Shown here piece after piece: positions 8,058 through 32,000 of a DNA stretch of 32,000 nucleotides (position 1 is the stretch's first letter; every line of letters begins with the position of its first letter). The notes beneath the pieces are model-generated. The model had not been told where the DNA came from, did not search any database, and worked only from the letters and a program-made list of their open reading frames with translations. A program made the translations under genes and the position numbers. The stretch spans positions 1,213 to 33,212 of the forward strand of contig NZ_NVQC01000040.1 of the NCBI RefSeq assembly GCF_003044035.1. The letters run 5' to 3'. Source of the stretch: Candidatus Methylomirabilis limnetica. Its GTDB lineage: Bacteria; Methylomirabilota; Methylomirabilia; Methylomirabilales; Methylomirabilaceae.

Positions 8058-8060
8058 ATT

Positions 8061-8123
8061 GCGTCTATAGCGTATCTAGCGTATGACGCGACGACACAAT
8101 GGACGCAAAAGACGCAAATGCAG
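8061..8123. repeat. 9-nt tandem repeat block in two opposed orientations
   Basis: GCGTCTATA GCGTATCTA GCGTATGAC GCGACGACA CAATGGACG CAAAAGACG CAAATGCAG. The left units are roughly the reverse complement of the right units (GCGTCTAT vs ATAGACGC-like). The last unit contains the ATG at 8118. Confidence 0.7.
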
Positions 8124-8376: not shown

Positions 8377-9516
8377 GTGTCTAATCCTCTGCGGACAGCC
8401 GACTTTGACTACATCCTGCCCCCCGATCTGATTGCCCAGGCGCCCGCTCCAGAGCGTGATCGCTCGCGGCTCCTGGTCCTTGATCGGAACACGGGCGTCC
8501 TGCAACATCGAATCTTCCGAGATCTTCCAGAATACCTCCTTCCAGGAGATCTGTTGGTCGTCAATGAGGCTAAAGTGATCCCCGCCAGGCTCTTTGGTCG
8601 ATCCGAGCGGCGACATCTCATCGAGGTATTGCTCCTGTGTGAAGTTGAAGCCGATCCCGACTTAAAGCGTGCCGGAACAAGCTGCTGGGAGGCTTTGGTC
8701 AAGCCATCCAGACAGGTTCGGACCGGCGACCGCCTTGCCCTGGCAGATGAAACGATCACGGCCGAGGTGATAGAGAAACGCGGTGAGGGACGCCACCTGC
8801 TCAAGCTCGCGTATGACGGAAAACTCGCCGACCTCCTGTGGCAATTCGGCCAGATGCCGGTTCCACCGTACATCAAAAGGCAGCGATCAGCGATCAGCAG
8901 TCAGCAGTCAGCAAAAGACGATCTGACTTCTCCATACCCTATACCCTATCCCCTAGACCCTGTTCTTTTGGATCGCGAGCGGTACCAAACGGTATACGCA
9001 AAGCATGAAGGGGCCATTGCGGCGCCTACGGCCGGCCTCCACTTCACACCGGAACTGATCGAAACGCTTACGCGGCAGGGCGTCGCCGTAGCCCCGATCA
9101 CCCTCTATGTCGGCCCTGGTACGTTTCGTCCTATTCGGGTGGAGGAGGTTTCTGCGCATCAGATGGAGTCGGAGCGTTACATTGTTCCGGAACAGACGGC
9201 CCTGGCGGTCAAAGCCGCAAAGAGAGAGGGGCGGAGGGTGATCGCGGTCGGGACTACGACCGTCCGGGCACTTGAGCACGCCGCAGTCGATGGCGACGTG
9301 AGGTCCGGGGCCGGTGCAACAGACCTCTTTATCTATCCGGGCTATCGCTATAGGTGCATCGACGCCCTGATCACCAACTTTCATCTTCCTCGCTCCACCC
9401 TCTTCATGCTGGTCTCAGCCTTCGCAGGCCGGGATGCCGTCCTGGCTGCGTATTGTGAGGCTATCGCCCTACGCTACCGTTTCTATTCCTACGGCGACGC
9501 GATGTTGATTGTATGA
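8377..9516 (+). CDS. queA: tRNA preQ1(34) S-adenosylmethionine ribosyltransferase-isomerase QueA, carrying a repeat-derived insertion
   Basis: GTG start. Motifs: DFDYILPPDLIAQAP, PPYIKR...YQTVYA, APTAGLHFT, AVGTTTVRALE, TNFHLPRSTL, FYSYGDAMLI. Confidence 0.95.
   Translation: MSNPLRTADFDYILPPDLIAQAPAPERDRSRLLVLDRNTGVLQHRIFRDLPEYLLPGDLLVVNEAKVIPARLFGRSERRHLIEVLLLCEVEADPDLKRAGTSCWEALVKPSRQVRTGDRLALADETITAEVIEKRGEGRHLLKLAYDGKLADLLWQFGQMPVPPYIKRQRSAISSQQSAKDDLTSPYPIPYPLDPVLLDRERYQTVYAKHEGAIAAPTAGLHFTPELIETLTRQGVAVAPITLYVGPGTFRPIRVEEVSAHQMESERYIVPEQTALAVKAAKREGRRVIAVGTTTVRALEHAAVDGDVRSGAGATDLFIYPGYRYRCIDALITNFHLPRSTLFMLVSAFAGRDAVLAAYCEAIALRYRFYSYGDAMLIV
8881..8968. repeat. Heptamer repeats inside queA: TCAGC-type run, 20-nt spacer, ACCCT-type run
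   Basis: CAGCGAT CAGCGAT CAGCAGT CAGCAGT CAGCA (8881-8913), then ATACCCT ATACCCT ATCCCCT AGACCCT GTTCTTT (8934-8968). Confidence 0.9.
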
Positions 9517-9553
9517 TAAGGTAGCCGGATGGCAATCAGCGGATTCTGACCTA

Positions 9554-10726
<1,173 letters not shown>

Positions 10727-17805: not shown

Positions 17806-17966
17806 GGGTAACTACTCAGGTAGATAGGCTGAAGGCTTTTAGGGGTAAGCCATGCGTGATCATACAAAACTCCGAAAAGGTCTTGAGTGGCTCGATTCGT
17901 GCCTTGCGAGATAATTTAGAACCTTCAGTCTTCAGCCTTCAGTCTAAACACCTGAGTAGTTACCCC
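17806..17966. repeat. MITE/REP-like element: ~31-nt imperfect terminal inverted repeats flanking ~98 nt
   Basis: Left arm GGGTAACTACTCAGGTAGATAGGCTGAAGGC (17806-17836). The reverse complement of the right arm (17935-17966) is GGGGTAACTACTCAGGTGTTTAGACTGAAGGC, with 27 of 31 positions matching. The inner right side carries CTTCAGT CTTCAGC CTTCAGT heptamers (17923-17943). Confidence 0.7.
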
Positions 17967-20084: not shown

Positions 20085-21182
20085 ATGTTTCAGACCATTG
20101 AATGGACACCAGAGGGCGCCGTCCGGCTTCTGGATCAGCGTCGGTTGCCGGCGGAAGAGGTGTATGTCGAGTGTCGCGATGTGGCGGCCGTCGCACACGC
20201 GATCCGGACCATGCAGATCCGCGGGGCTCCGGCGATCGGCGTGGCCGGCGCGATGGGCCTGGCATTAGCGGCGCAGACCATTCGTGCGACGTGTTTTGAG
20301 GCATTCTACGCGGAGTTGTTGCGCCAGGGCGAGGTGCTGCACAGGACCCGCCCCACTGCCGTGAACCTGGCGTGGGGGATCGAGCGGATGCAGCGATGTG
20401 CGGCCGCACACAAGGCCCTCCCGGTGGCCGAGATCGTCCAGGCCCTCATCCGGGAGGCACAACAGATCCGGGAGGAGGACATCCTGGGCAACCGGGCGAT
20501 CGGCGCGTATGGCCGAGGACTCATCCCCGATGGCGCCACCGTGCTCACCCACTGTAACGCCGGCGCCTTGGCCACCGCGGGCTACGGGACCGCCCTGGGG
20601 GTCATCCGCGCGGCGCACGCGGCCGGCACCCGGCTGTCCGTGTGGGCCGGCGAGACGCGACCGTTTCTGCAGGGCGCCCGGCTGACCGCCTGGGAGTTGC
20701 AACAGGATGGCATTGCGGTCACGCTCATCACCGATAATATGACCGGCCACCTGATGCAGCGTGGGCAGATCGATCTCGTCATCGTTGGGGCCGACCGGAT
20801 CGCCCGCAATGGCGACGTGGCGAACAAGATCGGGACCTACACCCTGGCTGTCCTGGCGCAGGCACACGGGCTTCCGTTCTATGTCGCGGCCCCCCTGTCC
20901 ACCCTGGACCTATCGCTTGGCGACGGCATGGCGATCCCGATCGAGGAGCGCGATCCCGAGGAGGTAACCAGTTGGGCGGGCGTCAGGACTGCGCCGGTTG
21001 GGGTCCGGGCGCACAATCCCGTCTTCGACATGACGCCTCACCGGTACATCACCGCCATCATAACCGATCGGGGGGTGGTACGGCCCCCGTACGATACGGG
21101 CCTGGCCGCTCTGGCCGGCCAGAGCGTCGTAACATCTACAGCGTCATTGCGTGATAGCGTCAAATCCACACATACGCCATAG
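20085..21182 (+). CDS. mtnA: S-methyl-5-thioribose-1-phosphate isomerase
   Basis: [64 protein letters not shown]. Confidence 0.9.
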
Positions 21183-23474
21183 ATGTTGCATACAATAGAC
21201 GCAATAGACGCCGCCCGCAATGGACGCAATAGACGCCGCAGATGTACGCCTGCGGGCATGACGGTGATGCTGATGCTACTGCTGGCACCGCTGCACGCCA
21301 CCGCCTCGCCTGAAACGCCACCAACATCTCTGTGGCAGGAGGCGCTTACGCGCATCGGGACCCACGATTACCATGGCGCGGCGCCCCTGCTTGACGATCT
21401 GCGGCAACGCGATGGCTTCGCCAAAGCCCACGAGGCCAACTTCCTCCTGGGCGTGGTGCTGTACCGACAGAAGCAGTGGCAGGAGGCCGCCGACGCATTG
21501 GAGGTGGCCGCAACGCAGGTGCCTGTACTTGGGGATTATGCCCTGTACTACGCCGCATCAGCCTATCAGACCCTTGGCCTGAACTCTCGGGCGCTGGCTG
21601 TACTGTCGCGCCTGCTTCACGAGCATCCGGGGAGCCTGCTCACCGAGCGAGCTCGACAAGAGCGCGCACGGCTTTATTCCGACGCTAACCAACTCGCGCA
21701 GGCTGAGGAGGCGTACCGGGATTACCTGGCCCACGCCTCAGGCGAGGCGAGGCGACGGGAAGCGCAACTCGCGCTGGCAGAGATTGCCGTCAAGGCGGAT
21801 AAGCGCCGGGAGGCCGAAGCACTGCTACGCGAGCTGTGGCTCAAGTGGCCGGCGAGCCGGGAGGCGGCTCGAGCCGGCGAACTCCTGGCCTCAATGGCAG
21901 AAGTACCACCCTTCACCCTTGATGAGCAGTTCGATCGGGCGCTCAGTCTGTACCGTAGCAGCCAGTACGCCCAGGCAATTACCGCGTTCACACCCTTCTT
22001 GCCTGTCCCCGACCCCGATCGGGGAAGCGATGGCTCGCCCCCTCTCGACAGAGCGCGGGACAGGTTTGCCTCTCGCGCAAGGCTCTGGAGCGGCGTCAGT
22101 TACTTTCACCGCCGGGACTACAGCCGAGCCATCAGCCTCCTGTCGCCTCTGGGTCAGGACCACTCCCTTCATTCGGCGGAAGCGCTGTACTGGACCGGGC
22201 GAAGCCATGTCAGAGTTAACGACAGCGAAAAAGCCATCACAACGTGGACCCGCCTGGTCGACGCCTATCCGAATAGTCCCTTTAGCGCCGAGTCACTCTA
22301 CCTGATGGCGCTCCAGTACAGTGACGATGGCAAACCGAAACGGGCTGTACGGGCTCTCACCAGGCTCCTCAGGGACCACCCGTCTAGCCAGTTCGCCGAC
22401 GCCGCCCTCTGGACTCGGGCCTGGATCCATTATCGACAGTCGGCTCTTACGGAGGCACTTGCTGATCTGCAACGACTGCACGCGAGGGGTGCGTCAGCCT
22501 CGCGGTTTCAGGTGCAAGCTCTCTATTGGCAGGGCCGGGTCCTTGAAGGTCTGAAAAAGAGGGGGAAGGCTGTAGCGGCGTACCGAGGGCTACTCAGTAC
22601 CCACAAGAACGAGGACTATTACGTCGAACAGACGCGTCTGCGCCTGAAGACGCTGGAGCCACAGTCTGCGCGTGCCCTCGCGCTCGCCACGCCAAGCGAG
22701 CCTTCAGGGGTCAGTGGTCAGGGGTTAGCCGTTCCTGTACCCTGTACCCTATCCCCTCAACCCTGTTCTTCCGAGGTGGCCAAAGCCAGACTGCTCAAGG
22801 ATCTGAACCTGCGGGAGGAGGCATCAGAGGAGTTCTGGGCCCTCGCAGGGCGGTCTGCGGAAGACCGCGGACTCTTATACGAGGCCTGTAGCGCGTTGCT
22901 CGACTTGGGTTATCTCGATAAGAGTGTGGCGATCGCGAAGCGCCTCCTTCGTCCGCTGTATGCCCACAGTCGGCCCGCGGGGCCGGTGCCGAGATATTGG
23001 GAGTTCCTCTACCCGCTCGGATATTGGGATCTGGTACGGGGGCAGAGCGCGCAGTATACCCTTGATCCATACCTGGTTGTTGCGCTGATTCGGGAGGAGA
23101 GCGCGTTTAGCGAACGGGTAGTGTCGTCTTCCGGGGCTGTTGGGCTGATGCAACTGCTCCCCACAACCGCCAATTACATGGCCAATGCGAAAGGCAGCTC
23201 TGGGGATCCGACGAAGCTCGACACGCCGGCCAATAATATTGCGCTTGGCACTCGATACCTGGCGATGATGCTCGATGAGTTCAAGGGCAACTGGGCCAGG
23301 GCCTTAGCCGCATACAATGCTGGGCCAAACCAGGTGCGTCGCTGGTTGGGACGGTTGGGGGATCGCACTGATGACGAGTTCATTGAAGAGATCCCGTTCT
23401 CAGAGACGAGAGCGTATGTGAAGCGGGTCCTCGGAAGCTATTACCGCTATCGAGCGCAGTATAGTAAAGGATAG
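21183..23474 (+). CDS. slt: Soluble lytic murein transglycosylase (Slt70-like: TPR superhelix plus C-terminal SLT domain)
   Basis: SLT motifs LIREESAFS, GAVGLMQLLPTTA and AYNAGPNQV. The N-terminal half is TPR-like. The start is ambiguous: ATG 21183 directly abuts the mtnA stop and is built from 9-nt repeats, while ATG 21258 gives MTVMLMLLLAPLHATA. Confidence 0.88.
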   Translation: MLHTIDAIDAARNGRNRRRRCTPAGMTVMLMLLLAPLHATASPETPPTSLWQEALTRIGTHDYHGAAPLLDDLRQRDGFAKAHEANFLLGVVLYRQKQWQEAADALEVAATQVPVLGDYALYYAASAYQTLGLNSRALAVLSRLLHEHPGSLLTERARQERARLYSDANQLAQAEEAYRDYLAHASGEARRREAQLALAEIAVKADKRREAEALLRELWLKWPASREAARAGELLASMAEVPPFTLDEQFDRALSLYRSSQYAQAITAFTPFLPVPDPDRGSDGSPPLDRARDRFASRARLWSGVSYFHRRDYSRAISLLSPLGQDHSLHSAEALYWTGRSHVRVNDSEKAITTWTRLVDAYPNSPFSAESLYLMALQYSDDGKPKRAVRALTRLLRDHPSSQFADAALWTRAWIHYRQSALTEALADLQRLHARGASASRFQVQALYWQGRVLEGLKKRGKAVAAYRGLLSTHKNEDYYVEQTRLRLKTLEPQSARALALATPSEPSGVSGQGLAVPVPCTLSPQPCSSEVAKARLLKDLNLREEASEEFWALAGRSAEDRGLLYEACSALLDLGYLDKSVAIAKRLLRPLYAHSRPAGPVPRYWEFLYPLGYWDLVRGQSAQYTLDPYLVVALIREESAFSERVVSSSGAVGLMQLLPTTANYMANAKGSSGDPTKLDTPANNIALGTRYLAMMLDEFKGNWARALAAYNAGPNQVRRWLGRLGDRTDDEFIEEIPFSETRAYVKRVLGSYYRYRAQYSKG
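21193..21235. repeat. 9-nt tandem repeats at the mtnA/slt junction
   Basis: CAATAGACG CAATAGACG ccgcccg CAATGGACG CAATAGACG. These are the same units as at 8097-8114. Confidence 0.85.
22703..22772. repeat. Ten phased heptamer units inside slt (TCAGC-type followed by ACCCT-type)
   Basis: TTCAGGG GTCAGTG GTCAGGG GTTAGCC GTTCCTG TACCCTG TACCCTA TCCCCTC AACCCTG TTCTTCC. Confidence 0.85.
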
Positions 23475-23491
23475 GGTGGAGGGTGGAGGAA
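23471..23491. repeat. ACCCT-type heptamers (reverse orientation) at the slt/coaBC junction
   Basis: ATAGGGT GGAGGGT GGAGGAA. This block contains the slt stop TAG (23472-23474) and GGAGG Shine-Dalgarno-like motifs. Confidence 0.75.
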
Positions 23492-23494
23492 GGT

Positions 23495-24733
23495 GTGGAC
23501 AACGGGCAAATGACGCTACAGGGGAAACAGATCGTGCTGGGCGTGACCGGGAGTATCGCCGCCTATAAGGCCGTAGAGCTTGTGCGGGCGCTCACCACGG
23601 CGGGGGCCGGTGTTCGGGTCGTCATGACCGCCTCGGCCCAGCGCTTTGTGACCCCCCTGACGTTTGCCACCCTCTCGCGGCAGGCGGTAATGACCGACCG
23701 TGTGACCCTGGAGGACGAGACGACGATGCCGCACATCGCCACGGCGCATGAGGCCGACCTGCTCCTGGTCGCGCCTGCCACCGCCAATACCATCGCCAAG
23801 TTCGCTCAGGGGCTGGCCGACGATCTACTGAGCACCCTCTTCCTGGCGTGGACGCGGCCGGTTGTGCTTGCGCCCGCCATGGACGCGGCCATGTACCGCC
23901 ACCCCGCCGTTCAAGAGAATCTGGCGCGATTGCAGGGCTGGGGGGTGCGACTTGTGGGTCCGGCGACTGGTGAGCTGGCCTCGGGCGTGTGGGGTCCCGG
24001 CCGTCTGTCCGAGATCGGCGAGATCGTGCAGGCCGTGACCGAGACGCTCTGTCCCGTACGCGACCTGTGCGGCGAGGTGATCCTGATCACCGCCGGCCCG
24101 ACGCGTGAGCCGATCGATCCGGTACGCTACCTCAGTACCCGCGCCTCCGGCAAGATGGGGTACGCCCTGGCAGAGGAAGCGGTGGCGCGAGGCGCGCGTA
24201 CCATCCTGGTCAGTGGCCCGACCCACGTGAGCCCGCCTACGGGGGTCGAACTCATCCAGATCGAGACCGCCCTGCAGATGCGCACGGCTGTGCTGGACCG
24301 ATTGGCCGAGGCTACGGTGGTGATCAAAGCAGCCGCGGTCAGCGATTATCGTGTCGCGCAGCCGGCTGACGCCAAGCTCTCGAAAGGCGAGGCGCCCCTG
24401 ACGCTGGAACTGGTGCCTACTCCGGACATCCTTAAAGAGATTGGTGCTCAGAAGGGCGCACGGATTGTCGTCGGCTTCGCGGCCGAGACCGGCGAGGTTG
24501 TGCGGCGGGCTCACCATAAGCTGATGGCCAAGCAGCTCGACCTGATCGTGGCGAACGACGTGAGCCAGGCCGGGGCCGGGTTCGCGTGCGACACCAATCT
24601 GGTGATCCTACTCGATCCGGCAGGGGGGGCTGAAGAGCTCCCACTGCTTCCCAAACGGCAGGTGGCGCGTCACATCCTCGACCGCGTGGTGGGCCTCCGG
24701 CAGCAGAAAAACAGGGTAGAGGGTGGAGGGTAG
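23495..24733 (+). CDS. coaBC: Bifunctional phosphopantothenoylcysteine decarboxylase / phosphopantothenate-cysteine ligase
   Basis: [24 protein letters not shown] and [17 protein letters not shown]; the C-terminal CoaB half has [25 protein letters not shown]. Start candidates are GTG 23495 (GGAGG 5 nt upstream), ATG 23510 and GTG 23483. Confidence 0.92.
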
Positions 24734-24745
24734 AGGGTGGAGCTG
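24711..24745. repeat. ACCCT-type heptamers (reverse orientation) at the coaBC/udg junction
   Basis: ACAGGGT AGAGGGT GGAGGGT AGAGGGT GGAGCTG. This block encodes the last coaBC codons (RVEGGG), its TAG stop (24731-24733), and the GGAG located 5 nt upstream of the udg ATG. Confidence 0.85.
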
Positions 24746-29302: not shown

Positions 29303-31813
29303 ATGGCCACCGAACCTGACCATCTTCTCGTTGAAATCGCCCTGCCGGTTCCCCCACGAAGGGTCCTGACGTATACCATCCCGTCCGATTTACAGAAACA
29401 GGTTGAGGTCGGCAAGCGAGCCCTCGTGCCGCTTGGCCCTCGCCTGGTGACCGGGTATATTGTCGGTCTCCACACGTTCAGCGATCAGCCGTCAGCCGTC
29501 AGGCATCAGGCATCAGAACTCAAGCCGATTGACGCGATCCTGGACCCCGAGCCGCTGCTAGATCACCACATGCTGGAGCTCACACGCCTTATAGCGGACT
29601 ACTATCTGACGTCGTGGGGGCTGGTTATTCGGGCAGCTCTGCCCCCTGGGATCGATCGTAGGACGGCTCGGACTGTCGAGCTCATCGAGTCTCCGGACCT
29701 TTTCCCACATACGTTAAGCGGGGAGCGCCTCACCCAAGAGGCCGGCAAGCTTGGCCCCCTCCAGCAGCAGATGCTTGCCGCTCTGCAAGTGCAACGCCGG
29801 ATGCTGCTTTCATCCCTCAAACAGCGGTGGCCGGACGAGGAGGTCGATCGTCTCATCCGCATGCTTGTCAGACAGAACCTGGCGAGGGTGGAATACCGCG
29901 AATGCCTGCCATTGGTTCGGCCTGCCTATCGGTCCTTGCTCGGCCTGGCCGTCGACCGCGCCTCTGCGGAGGCCGAGTTGGCCGCTCTCCGACGACGGGC
30001 GCCGCGACAGGCCTCGTTACTCGATCGCCTGCTGCAATCAGGATCAACACTCACGTCTGTAGAGGCCACAGTCCTCGCTGGCGCCTCCGGGGTTCGCGGC
30101 CTCATCGCCAAAGGCTTCATCCGTCGAGTTACGGAGGTGGTTGAGCGGTCTCCCTGGGAAGAGCCCGTTGTTGCCACGGGCTCCTGGCCTGAGCCCAACT
30201 CAGCCCAACAAACAGCGATTGATGGGCTCCTGGCGGGACTACCCTCTCGCACATTTTTCCCGGCACTGCTCCATGGCGCAACGGGGAGCGGGAAAACCGA
30301 GGTCTATCTTCGAGTGATCGGCGAGGTGGTACGACAGGGAAGGCAGGCGCTCGTACTCGTTCCGGAAATCGCCTTGACCCCTGTTACTGCCGATCGATTC
30401 CGCTCCCGCTTCGGGGACCGGGTCGCACTACTGCACAGCGGCCTCTCGCCTGGCGAGCGGCTGGATCAGTGGTACCGCATCAAGCGCGGGATGGCCGATA
30501 TCGTCGTGGGTACGCGGTCCGCGGTCTTCGCCCCTCTCTCTCGCCTTAGCCTCATCGTGGTCGATGAAGAGCACGACGACTCTTATAAGCAGCAAGATGA
30601 GCCGCGCTACCACGCGAGGGATGTAGCCCTGGCCAGAGGGCAGATGCTTGGGATTGCAGTCCTCCTTGGTTCCGCGACCCCAGCCTTTGAAAGTATCCAT
30701 CGTGCCAAGGAAGGGGCCTACCGACTATTCCTGCTTCCAGAGCGGGTTGAAGCCAGGACACTGCCCTCGATGACACTGATAGATATGCGCGAAGAACGTG
30801 CGAAGTGCGAGGTGCGAGGCGCTCCGCTCATCTTCTCCCGACGGCTGGCGGACGCGATCAAGGAGACGCTGGCTAAAGGGGAGCAGGTCTTGCTGTTCTT
30901 GAATCGACGGGGTTACGCCAGAGTACTGCTCTGCCGTGACTGCGGTTTCGCCTTGCACTGCCCACATTGCAGCCTACCGCTCATCTACCATGCGGTGGAC
31001 GCCAGGATGCGCTGCCATTACTGCGATCATCGAGAACGCCCGCCCGCCCGCTGTCCCAAGTGCGGTGGGTTCGCGTTCGGATTCCTAGGGTATGGGACGC
31101 AGCAGGTAGAGGCCGCTGCTCGGCTCCTTGCGCCGGACGCGACCATGACCAGGATGGATCGTGACACCACGCGGCGACGGCGGGCGCACCAGCAGATACT
31201 AAAGGCCGTTGAGCAGGGACAGACGCAGGTCCTGATCGGAACGCAGATGGTTGGGAAGGGGCACGACTTCCCCGGGATTACCTTGGTCGGGGTCCTCTCT
31301 GCCGATGCCTCGATGGTGCTCCCCGATTTCAGGGCCGGGGAACGAACCTATGCCCTGCTCACACAGGTGGCCGGACGGGCCGGCCGTGGCGACCGGCCTG
31401 GTCAGGTGCTGGTTCAGACCTACAACCCGGATCACTATAGTATCCTCGCAGCCCGCAATCACGATTATGAAGCACTGTACCGAATCGAGCAGCCACTCAG
31501 AGAGAAGCGCGGCCTTCCTCCCTTCGGCTTCCTCGTCCTGCTCCTGGTCACCTCTTCAAAAGAGGGCCACGCGCAAGAGAAAGCCGAACGGCTCACCAGC
31601 CTTCTCCTGGAACGGGCCGTTTCGTCCCTTACTATCGAGGGACCGGCTCCGGCGCCGCTTTACCGGCTGAAAGGACGCTATCGCTGGCAGATCCTCGCCA
31701 AAGGTCCTGACCCGAGTACACTGCATCACTGGGTCAAGGAGACGATTGCGCTGCTCCCGCCGTCAGAACAAGTGGGCATCGAGGTCGATGTCGATCCCGT
31801 CAATCTGTGTTGA
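29303..31813 (+). CDS. priA: Primosomal protein N' (replication restart helicase PriA)
   Basis: Walker A GATGSGKTEVY, DEEHD, Zn-binding CRDCG..CPHCS..CHYCD..CPKCG, and GTQMVGKGHDFP. Confidence 0.95.
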   Translation: MATEPDHLLVEIALPVPPRRVLTYTIPSDLQKQVEVGKRALVPLGPRLVTGYIVGLHTFSDQPSAVRHQASELKPIDAILDPEPLLDHHMLELTRLIADYYLTSWGLVIRAALPPGIDRRTARTVELIESPDLFPHTLSGERLTQEAGKLGPLQQQMLAALQVQRRMLLSSLKQRWPDEEVDRLIRMLVRQNLARVEYRECLPLVRPAYRSLLGLAVDRASAEAELAALRRRAPRQASLLDRLLQSGSTLTSVEATVLAGASGVRGLIAKGFIRRVTEVVERSPWEEPVVATGSWPEPNSAQQTAIDGLLAGLPSRTFFPALLHGATGSGKTEVYLRVIGEVVRQGRQALVLVPEIALTPVTADRFRSRFGDRVALLHSGLSPGERLDQWYRIKRGMADIVVGTRSAVFAPLSRLSLIVVDEEHDDSYKQQDEPRYHARDVALARGQMLGIAVLLGSATPAFESIHRAKEGAYRLFLLPERVEARTLPSMTLIDMREERAKCEVRGAPLIFSRRLADAIKETLAKGEQVLLFLNRRGYARVLLCRDCGFALHCPHCSLPLIYHAVDARMRCHYCDHRERPPARCPKCGGFAFGFLGYGTQQVEAAARLLAPDATMTRMDRDTTRRRRAHQQILKAVEQGQTQVLIGTQMVGKGHDFPGITLVGVLSADASMVLPDFRAGERTYALLTQVAGRAGRGDRPGQVLVQTYNPDHYSILAARNHDYEALYRIEQPLREKRGLPPFGFLVLLLVTSSKEGHAQEKAERLTSLLLERAVSSLTIEGPAPAPLYRLKGRYRWQILAKGPDPSTLHHWVKETIALLPPSEQVGIEVDVDPVNLC
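29479..29520. repeat. Six in-phase heptamers (42 nt, 14 codons) inside priA
   Basis: CAGCGAT CAGCCGT CAGCCGT CAGGCAT CAGGCAT CAGAACT, translated as SDQPSAVRHQASEL. Confidence 0.9.
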
Positions 31814-31820
31814 ACGAGCA

Positions 31821-31872
31821 GCTATTAGCACTCAGCCGTCAGCGTTCAGCTTCTCTTGCTGACTGCTGAAGG
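31821..31872. repeat. TCAGC-type heptamers in opposed orientation forming an imperfect hairpin downstream of priA
   Basis: CTCAGCC GTCAGCG TTCAGCT TCTCTTG CTGACTG CTGAAGG. 31836-31850 pairs with 31858-31872 (12 Watson-Crick pairs plus 1 G-U out of 15, loop TTCTCTT). It may act as the priA terminator, but no U-tract follows. Confidence 0.6.
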
Positions 31873-31900
31873 CGGGTGTAAGACAAATTTATGGGTAATA

Positions 31901-31954
31901 TTGACTTTTCCCTTTTTTTGGCCTATCATCTGATTGTTAATTGAGCAATCAGAT
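31901..31954 (+). promoter_or_regulatory. Near-consensus sigma70-type promoter overlapping a 9-bp perfect inverted repeat (candidate operator)
   Basis: TTGACT (31901-31906), 17-nt spacer, TATCAT (31924-31929). ATCTGATTG (31928-31936), 9-nt spacer, CAATCAGAT (31946-31954). Then AAGGAGG and the ATG at 31966. Confidence 0.55.
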
Positions 31955-31965
31955 AAGGAGGCCTT

Positions 31966-32000
31966 ATGACAACACCACTTGAACAACTGGAAGAGCGCCG
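31966..32000 (+). CDS. 5' end of the second copy of the small Cys-motif (DUF6788-like) gene; partial
   Basis: MTTPLEQLEERR... matches the copy A N-terminus MATPLEQLEERR. It runs off the window. Confidence 0.7.
   Translation, partial: MTTPLEQLEER

Follow-up and report, generated by a model that had tools for sequence, protein, structure and literature searches.

A 34-nucleotide (nt) segment found in both queA and slt of Candidatus Methylomirabilis limnetica is probably the C-rich arm of a compound heptanucleotide simple sequence repeat (SSR) tract, of the short tandemly repeated repetitive (STRR) or G3N4 type, which has been remodelled at the DNA level and is tolerated in frame in protein loops. 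The DNA analysed, referred to here as the window, is a stretch of 32,000 nt of contig NZ_NVQC01000040.1. The queA gene is the open reading frame (ORF) at 8377–9516 (Pfam Queuosine_synth, E 9e-129), and slt is the ORF at 21183–23474, which carries an SLT domain and tetratricopeptide (TPR) repeats. The segments at 8934–8967 in queA and 22737–22770 in slt are identical at 30 of 34 positions, with the sequences and positions reported in a preliminary description of this DNA. The codon phases differ as reported: (8934−8377) mod 3 is 2, placing the first base at codon position 3 in queA, and (22737−21183) mod 3 is 0, placing it at codon position 1 in slt. The translations, SPYPIPYPLDPVLL in queA and VPCTLSPQPCSS in slt, are also right. 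The only sites in the window that fit a degenerate 34-mer covering both copies are these two, and 100 dinucleotide-preserving shuffles yielded no match, so that a chance match is rejected. An assembly artefact is likewise rejected, because the tracts are also present in independent assemblies (P0001 from Logan and L150 from JGI).

The view that the segment is a discrete 34-nt module is not borne out. Each copy consists of four NNACCCT units, one of them ATCCCCT, followed by GTTCTT, a tail that looks like a decayed fifth heptamer unit. The limits of the 34-mer are arbitrary, the segment being in both genes the right half of a longer two-array tract (8880–8967 in queA and 22704–22770 in slt). 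The C-arm of queA (8934–8967, + strand; 8934–8961 in Tandem Repeats Finder (TRF)) is made of ATACCCT, ATACCCT, ATCCCCT and AGACCCT, and that of slt (22737–22770, + strand; TRF 22734–22766) of GTACCCT, GTACCCT, ATCCCCT and CAACCCT, each with the GTTCTT tail. To the left of the C-arm, 8–20 nt away, a second heptamer family whose units end in TCAG (NNNTCAG) is represented in both genes by about four copies. The left arm of queA, (CGATCAG)2(CAGTCAG)2, is of this NNNTCAG or 'AG' type and occupies 8880–8913 of the + strand (TRF period 7 at 8881–8913 with 100% matches, supported by periodicity and pattern scans). The left arm of slt, TCAGGGG, TCAGTGG, TCAGGGG and TTAG, occupies 22704–22733 of the + strand (TRF 22704–22725) and, read as GGGTCAG, TGGTCAG and GGGTTAG, is NNNTCAG-type; it is also G-rich and partly complementary to the C-arm.

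A family-level null was built from the last four units and the following six bases of 142 arrays among the matches listed in a genome scan described below. Identity of these arrays to the queA or the slt copy averages 23/34; family similarity alone thus gives 23/34, and a discrete module is unsupported. About 4% of between-organism pairs of unrelated arrays reach 30/34, and among the matches listed this value is reached by 1 of the 142 arrays, from an Acidobacterium, against the queA copy and by none of the 142 against the slt copy. An identity of 30/34 is therefore moderately unusual for two (NNACCCT)4 arrays, lying in the top few per cent of family pairs. The queA and slt copies have in common the ATCCCCT unit at the same place and the GTTCTT tail, the latter being found in none of 252 arrays from other loci among the matches listed. 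The two copies are probably alike as members, probably old ones, of the same family, and recent exchange between them is not required.

The difference in reading frame between the two genes is a fact, but as a separate clue, which the preliminary description took it to be, it falls away, being inherent in the 7-nt period. Since 7 equals 1 modulo 3, three units (21 nt) traverse all three codon phases, so that arrays of at least three units are translated in every phase, and a +1 frame shift is the same as a one-unit register shift along the array. The superficially unrelated queA and slt peptides are thus register-shifted versions of one periodic translation: when IPYPLDPVLL of queA is aligned with VPCTLSPQPCSS of slt at a one-unit offset, the P, L and P residues derived from the ACCCT cores coincide. 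Arrays of CTGANNN, AGGGTAG or TAACTGA hit a stop codon in one phase, so that coding copies of three or more such units are possible only as sense NNNTCAG or NNACCCT. The coding copies found are sense-strand NNNTCAG or NNACCCT, as this arithmetic predicts, and TAACTGA repeats within ORFs likewise occur only in the stop-free orientation (MacGregor, PMC4679880). In-gene tracts therefore need a stop-free orientation, and they also need a total length that is a multiple of 3. The occurrence of the same DNA in two genes and two frames is explained by a seven-base repeat family invading tolerant protein loops, which provides a natural example of how non-triplet repeats are accommodated in coding sequence.

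Arrays were located by TRF, by a periodicity scan and by spaced-core pattern scans compared with shuffles, and the array counts rest on the 32-kb window and 189 kb of related Methylomirabilis DNA. When sliding self-identity at lag p was measured over the window for p = 3–12, period 7 alone was enriched, with 42 positive positions against 0–1 for every other p. The 189 kb of related DNA contain 13 period-7 arrays against 3 for periods 5, 6, 8 and 9. Three spaced CCCT cores occur 6 times in the window and never in shuffles, and three spaced TCAG cores, with one mismatch allowed, 15 times against 0.12 in shuffles. Heptamer arrays are present at about 12 sites of the window, on both strands, two each lying in frame in queA, slt and priA and the rest in spacers or gene junctions; besides the four queA and slt arrays, TRF reports period 7 at eight other sites. 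A scan of one genome per species with the pattern ACCCTNNACCCTNNNCCCTNNACCCT, that is (NNACCCT)4, matched at least 120 stretches (loci L001–L120), including Cyanobacteriota, Acidobacteriota, Planctomycetota, Bacteroidota, Chloroflexota, candidate phyla, Aliivibrio fischeri and others; two of the matches listed are Methylomirabilota loci. A metagenome scan with the 21-nt core of the 34-mer, TACCCTATCCCCTNNACCCTG, found the core in 79 stretches (L133–L211) with a GC content of 0.39–0.73, mostly from other organisms, and the slt of L150 is the sole recognisable queA or slt ortholog among these matches. Both sets of loci span many phyla. Both this Methylomirabilis lineage and many other bacteria have tracts of this kind throughout their genomes.

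The queA site was compared as DNA in nine genomes, and the QueA protein in 36 orthologs. The whole repeat-derived insertion, composed of the left array, a 20-nt spacer and the C-arm, lies at 8884–8967 (+ strand, about residues 170–197) according to structure and ortholog comparison, in the loop after PPYIKR. Only 2 of residues 170–199 have counterparts in the Thermotoga maritima structure 1VKY, and none of residues 170–196 in the Bacillus subtilis structure 1YY3; an AlphaFold model of QueA was poor overall (mean predicted local distance difference test score 53). The repeat block is the only hypervariable part of QueA across the 36 orthologs, the protein being otherwise 70–99% identical. In the nine genomes the insert starts after the same CAG/AAA codon, its units end in AG and the frame is kept, insert lengths of 48, 51, 90 and 93 nt differing by multiples of 3. 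Left arms are often perfect runs of 3–4 units, and some of the nine DNAs have a single arm. The left arm is a perfect (CGGTCAG)4 in L214, and (GGTATAG)2(GGTAGAG)2 or a variant in L129, L212, L213 and L215, in which left arm and C-arm are complementary and form a hairpin. It is absent in L131, and L132 has GAGACAG(GAGGCAG)3 and no C-arm. In L130, GTGCGAG-type units are followed by an unrelated palindrome, CCCC..TTTACAAAA..GGGG.

The type of left arm does not track QueA identity, the TCAG type being found in relatives with 99%, 95%, 89% and 72% identity and the AGGGTAT type in those with 92% and 88%. This patchy distribution suggests recombination between Methylomirabilis lineages or recurrent replacement. 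Arrays that are internally uniform and yet differ between relatives bear the mark of concerted remodelling at the DNA level. On the right side, the order ..ACCCT, ATCCCCT, AGACCCT recurs in several queA orthologs, the last unit AGACCCT being found down to 72% identity, and the VLL tail recurs in distant orthologs. At five codons of the C-arm that specify conserved Pro, Leu and Asp residues, 2 of 35 cases depart from the majority codon; elsewhere in the gene the rate for these amino acids is 21%. The difference is only suggestive because the seven related sequences are not independent (binomial P ~0.013).

The composite of GTGCGAG-type heptamers and the CCCC..GGGG palindrome in L130 queA (10506–10600; peptide SPHxPFTKGGxGG), which some lineages have in the queA loop, is also present in the second variable loop of priA in L121 (around residues 500–540 of the 867-residue PriA), the two being about 70% alike over about 75 nt. 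Its presence in two genes indicates that ready-made small elements reach new genes by some route. Palindromes related to this composite are found in the slt–coaBC spacer of L216 (5230–5400).

The slt tract lies in an inter-repeat linker before the conserved AKARLLK helix. Its left arm, GGGTCAG-type in the window, is a perfect (CAGCAGT)5 in L121, degenerate in L125 and missing in L127. The C-arm of L125 slt, from a protein with 77% identity, is a point-mutated version of that of the window with the unit order already present, and the tail CTGTTCTTC is kept in L121 and L127. Residues P518, P520, C521 and C528 are invariant in five orthologs, and the PxPC..PC motif encoded by the C-arm is kept in about 35. 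In L125 and L127 the heptamer pattern has been lost by synonymous and other changes and PC....PC is retained, which argues that the captured tract is now under peptide-level constraint in the periplasmic Slt protein. The residues C521 and C528 (window positions 22749–22769, in the region of slt codons 523–529) suggest a repeat-derived loop that has been domesticated, possibly through a disulfide bond. As to whether slt orthologs lack the segment, a check proposed in the preliminary description, they do so only outside the clade: within it the segment is carried, and a more distant clade (57–66% identity) has an ordinary Cys-free PxPxP linker of similar length with no heptamer periodicity in its DNA. 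The ATG of slt at 21183 is probably upstream of the true start, because the orthologs begin near the signal peptide.

Within genes, tracts survive only where an extra Pro/Ser/Gln-rich loop is tolerated, namely in QueA, in the Slt linker and in two loops of PriA. The low-complexity inserts in QueA, Slt and PriA are thus to be annotated in NC10 genomes as repeat-derived sequences and not as domains, and their sites are usable as strain markers. Selection or propagation acting on DNA and not on peptide, as initially proposed, is partly supported: it agrees with a pattern that is nucleotide-based, occurs in spacers on either strand and differs in heptamer family between queA orthologs, and with the somewhat raised conservation of synonymous sites in the queA C-arm. 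The corollary that the peptide is irrelevant does not hold for slt, in which cysteines are conserved while heptamers decay.

A tract comprises a G- or AG-type arm of about four units, a short spacer and a C-arm of four units, and would be created and remodelled by DNA-level processes that are blind to the reading frame. These processes may include slippage, intra-array conversion that spreads a mutated unit, template switching that makes an inverted arm, and some dispersal. Several points weigh against this interpretation. A one-unit slippage within a gene shifts the frame, so that conversion-like events or three-unit changes would be needed to give homogenised arrays like the (CGGTCAG)4 of queA. 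The two-arm architecture in two unrelated genes and the composite common to L130 queA and L121 priA look more like dispersal of ready-made elements than growth in situ. The census of arrays covers only the window and the 189 kb of related DNA. Finally, simple slippage does not predict the polarity of the paired arms. Of the NNNCCCT arrays of at least three units in the two scans, 20 of 160 and 23 of 164 are preceded within 90 nt by an inverted AGGGNNN arm of at least three units, and none is followed by one within that distance. The overall count among the matches listed is thus 43 upstream against 0 downstream. The order of G-arm followed by C-arm is also seen in the slt tract of the window (22704–22770) and in the queA hairpins (e.g. 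L129, 10502–10590).

This polarity is one reason to consider a discrete mobile palindromic element of about 80–90 nt, consisting of four AGGGTNN units, a loop and four NNACCCT units, which would have inserted independently into ancestral queA and slt and has since decayed, the periodicity being a property of the element itself. Such an element, comparable to Rickettsia palindromic elements (RPEs), transposable elements of the miniature inverted-repeat type (MITEs) or repetitive extragenic palindromic (REP) sequences, is possible but unlikely. It would account for the complete G-arm/loop/C-arm hairpins in queA of L129, L212, L213 and L215 and for similar hairpins in spacers of Methylomirabilota (L015, L066 and L127) and of other phyla, it is in line with the L130/L121 composite, and it has a precedent in the in-frame palindromic insertions of Rickettsia (PMC10969869). 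Some copies (L129 and slt) have inverted arms. However, the copies lack a conserved loop and defined ends, and the 45-nt indel that separates L129 from L131 shows no target-site duplication, few empty sites having been compared. The arm units differ between copies while each array is internally homogeneous, the family of the left arm switches between close relatives, and in the distant slt clade a heptamer-free linker takes up about the same length. REP sequences and REP doublets (REPINs) are tagged palindromes of 20–40 nt with a cognate REP-associated tyrosine transposase (RAYT); no transposase domain and no RAYT gene was found among the scanned ORFs of the window.

Selection on nucleic-acid structure, either a DNA G-quadruplex (G4) or i-motif or a transcript hairpin or G4 that modulates replication, transcription or translation, is compatible with a heptanucleotide tract and no more probable than an inserted element. 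The antisense strand of both C-arms is GGGN4GGGGN3GGGN4GGG, a canonical four-tract G3N4 motif, and the 24-nt G-strands of the arrays are GGGTCTAGGGGATAGGGTATAGGG and GGGTTGAGGGGATAGGGTACAGGG. Three of the five four-tract G3N4 motifs in the window are heptamer arrays; the total of 5 is only a mild excess over the 1.8 ± 1.2 of shuffles, which speaks against such selection. The arms of queA and slt orthologs repeatedly have four units, the number that GGGNATC repeats are reported to prefer (PMC4692102). G-strand arrays lie directly upstream of start codons, and synonymous positions in the queA C-arm vary less than background, although that test is weak for the reason given above. On the other hand, NNNTCAG arrays have no G-tracts, and L125 and L127 retain the slt peptide despite decay of the heptamers. 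The slt tract (22696–22773) folds at −27.2 kcal/mol (z = −2.5), whereas the fold of the queA tract of the window is, on both strands, no more stable than that of shuffles (z −0.3). As only the slt tract folds above shuffles, a conserved hairpin is not common to both copies. Since there is also no Rfam match in the window, RNA structure or a known RNA family is rejected as the explanation. A structural role of the tracts is nevertheless possible, judging from their motifs.

Two other functional candidates were tried. An intrinsic terminator with a hairpin and T-tail, suggested by GTTCTTTT, is rejected because a terminator scan flags neither site; T is not enriched after the C-arms in the unbiased genome-scan set among the matches listed (0.24–0.28). 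Phase variation is rejected because the frame is open across the tract in the nine queA DNAs and in 65 Methylomirabilis-type Slt homologs.

A more speculative idea gives the polarity a larger part. Paired arrays of about four AGGGTNN units, a loop and about four NNACCCT units might be a cross-phylum class of small DNA element in which the G-arm is always 5' of the C-arm on either strand, generated or moved by an undescribed directional mechanism, for instance a hairpin-specific enzyme or synthesis by fold-back or template switching where G-tracts form arrays. Such elements could insert in frame into essential genes, would have persisted through the Methylomirabilis radiation and would be partly domesticated, as in the Cys pair of Slt. 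The polarity and the L130/L121 composite keep a reading by mobile element or by directional synthesis alive at a low level of likelihood. The recurrence of the same heptamers across phyla together with the fixed polarity could point to the mechanism behind the long-noted excess of heptamers in bacteria.

Ongoing gene conversion between queA and slt, which would keep the 34-mers alike in this genome, is very improbable. It could explain the 30/34 identity with the ATCCCCT unit and the GTTCTT tail that arrays from other loci lack. However, the unit order of slt already exists, in diverged form, in L125, and CTGTTCTTC in L121 and L127; the order xxACCCT–ATCCCCT–AGACCCT with the VLL tail is found in distant queA orthologs; and the unrelated Acidobacterium array is equally similar. 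Each copy is thus old in its own gene, and no gene conversion is needed. Selection on Pro-rich linker peptides with the nucleotide match as a by-product, as the invariant slt residues and the PC...PC motif kept despite synonymous change might suggest, is largely refuted as the sole cause and equally improbable, because the queA peptide is not that of slt, non-coding DNA and the opposite strand also carry these heptamers, both the sequence and the length of the queA loop are hypervariable, and the Asp, Leu and Pro codons are more fixed in the queA arm than elsewhere in the gene.

The heptanucleotide tract favoured here belongs to a class that has already been described. Heptanucleotides are the most abundant long SSRs in many prokaryotes, and slippage over the 7-nt contact of the polymerase has been proposed (Mrazek et al. 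2007, as summarised in PMC4679880 and PMC4692102). As in those summaries, the repeats here are scattered head-to-tail arrays of 3–6 units that are over-represented relative to other periods and vary between relatives at one site. They have at least three head-to-tail 7-nt units and an excess over composition that is specific to period 7, and their units are polymorphic between relatives at the queA site (nine genomes), in the slt left arm and in the slt–coaBC spacer. The surveys, as far as these summaries convey them, stress an intergenic location and rarity in genes, whereas the arrays here lie in frame in three housekeeping genes of one 32-kb window, as paired G-type and C-type arms.

G-quadruplex-forming, G-rich heptamers of Xanthomonas and Nostoc, GGGNATC and GGGGA(C/T)T, prefer four units, occur at ORF ends and also as inverted pairs, and vary fast between close relatives (Rehm et al. 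2015, PMC4692102). The tracts described here resemble them in having one G3–4 tract per 7-nt unit, a preference for four units, positions near ORF ends, inverted pairs and variation at a locus. They differ in their unit, AGGGTNN/NNACCCT, in their NC10 host and in having copies inside coding sequences with a C-rich sense strand. The units found (AGGGTAT, AGGGTAG, AGGGTGG and AGGGGAT) fit neither GGGNATC nor GGGGAYT. TAACTGA repeats of Beggiatoaceae, Cyanobacteria and Bacteroidetes lie upstream of start codons and occasionally in ORFs (MacGregor 2015, PMC4679880). On the other strand (TAACTGA)n is (TTATCAG)n, a member of NNNTCAG, and in both cases most copies lie shortly before start codons and a minority sit in ORFs, stop-free and at tolerant positions. 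Here, however, the three variable bases differ (CGA, CAG, GGG, CCG and GCA), a second family is paired with the first, and conserved enzymes are interrupted in mid-sequence. An older description of cyanobacterial STRR heptamers reportedly goes back to Mazel and co-workers in 1990. Heterocystous cyanobacteria have the STRR units CCCCAGT, TTGGTCA and CAACAGT; the nearest unit found here, CAGCAGT, is one base off the last of these, and the host belongs to NC10.

RPEs are palindromes inserted in frame into housekeeping genes (Ogata et al. 2000, via PMC10969869). As far as that account goes, the likeness is that of small palindromic repeats which unrelated housekeeping genes carry in frame where the protein fold permits: in-frame insertion at tolerant sites is seen in QueA (residues 170–197, absent from 1VKY and 1YY3) and in variable loops of PriA and Slt. 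According to the same account, RPEs measure about 100–150 bp and have a full-length consensus and a conserved peptide in one frame, whereas here the frames differ, arms are replaced and only the heptamer core is common, the spacers being unrelated. Because the features of heptanucleotide SSRs are present, and the units of the named sub-families and the consensus and single frame of RPEs are absent, the tracts are classed with heptanucleotide SSRs, being RPE-like only in their in-frame residence in tolerant loops. The small dispersed repeats (SDRs) of Nostoc, reportedly described by Elhai and co-workers in 2008, are fixed-sequence units of 21–27 nt that occur within genes, inside one another and within tandem heptameric repeats. 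The CCCC..GGGG palindrome beside heptamers in L130 queA may be a parallel.

The other arrays of the window lie mostly near gene ends. An NNNTCAG array occupies 9552–9580 of the − strand in the queA–tgt spacer (TRF, periodicity and pattern scan). In the spacer downstream of nirS, an inverted pair of TCAG-type arms (17806–17837 and 17921–17965, together 17806–17965, with no strand assigned) forms a 32-nt inverted repeat that is 88% complementary (TRF 17923–17945). The G-strand of the NNACCCT family is represented on the + strand by (AGGGTGG)2.4 at 23473–23489, at the junction of the slt stop and the coaBC start (TRF), and by (AGGGTAG AGGGTGG)2 with four G-tracts at 24709–24744, at the junction of the coaBC stop and the udg start (TRF, periodicity and pattern scan). 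Each of these two arrays spans one stop codon and ends 5–10 nt before the next start, and they supply Shine–Dalgarno-like GGAGG/GGTGGAG strings for coaBC and udg. The slt–coaBC spacer differs by genome: the window has two AGGGTGG units there, L127 a full G-arm/loop/C-arm hairpin, and L121 units of CTGAAGG. The two priA arrays are at sites where orthologs vary in length and sequence: an NNNTCAG array of about 6 units in frame in a variable loop at 29473–29522 (+ strand; TRF, periodicity, pattern scan and orthologs) and an in-frame (GTGCGAG)3 array at a second variable site at 30794–30827 (+ strand; TRF, periodicity and orthologs), where L121 has the longer composite described above. A further NNNTCAG array follows directly after the priA stop codon at 31814–31849 (+ strand; repeat search and pattern scan).

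The window also contains a nirS/nirJ/nap cluster, ruvCAB, tgt, yajC, coaBC, udg and priA, and the best protein matches are in Methylomirabilis/NC10 (99% for QueA, 94% for NirS and 93% for Slt). Another repeat family, with 8–9-nt units around ATAGACGC and inverted GCGTCnnn units upstream, is found at 8058–8118 in the ruvB/DUF2905 spacer and at 21140–21236 at the junction of an mtnA-like gene and slt. An inverted duplicate of about 130 nt with 86–88% identity lies at 1886–2013 and 31874–32000, its second copy running off the end of the window. It holds the first codons, the Shine–Dalgarno site and the upstream palindrome (ATCTGATTG...CAATCAGAT) of a DUF6788 gene, and two DUF6788 paralogs about 30 kb apart thus appear to share a regulatory region.

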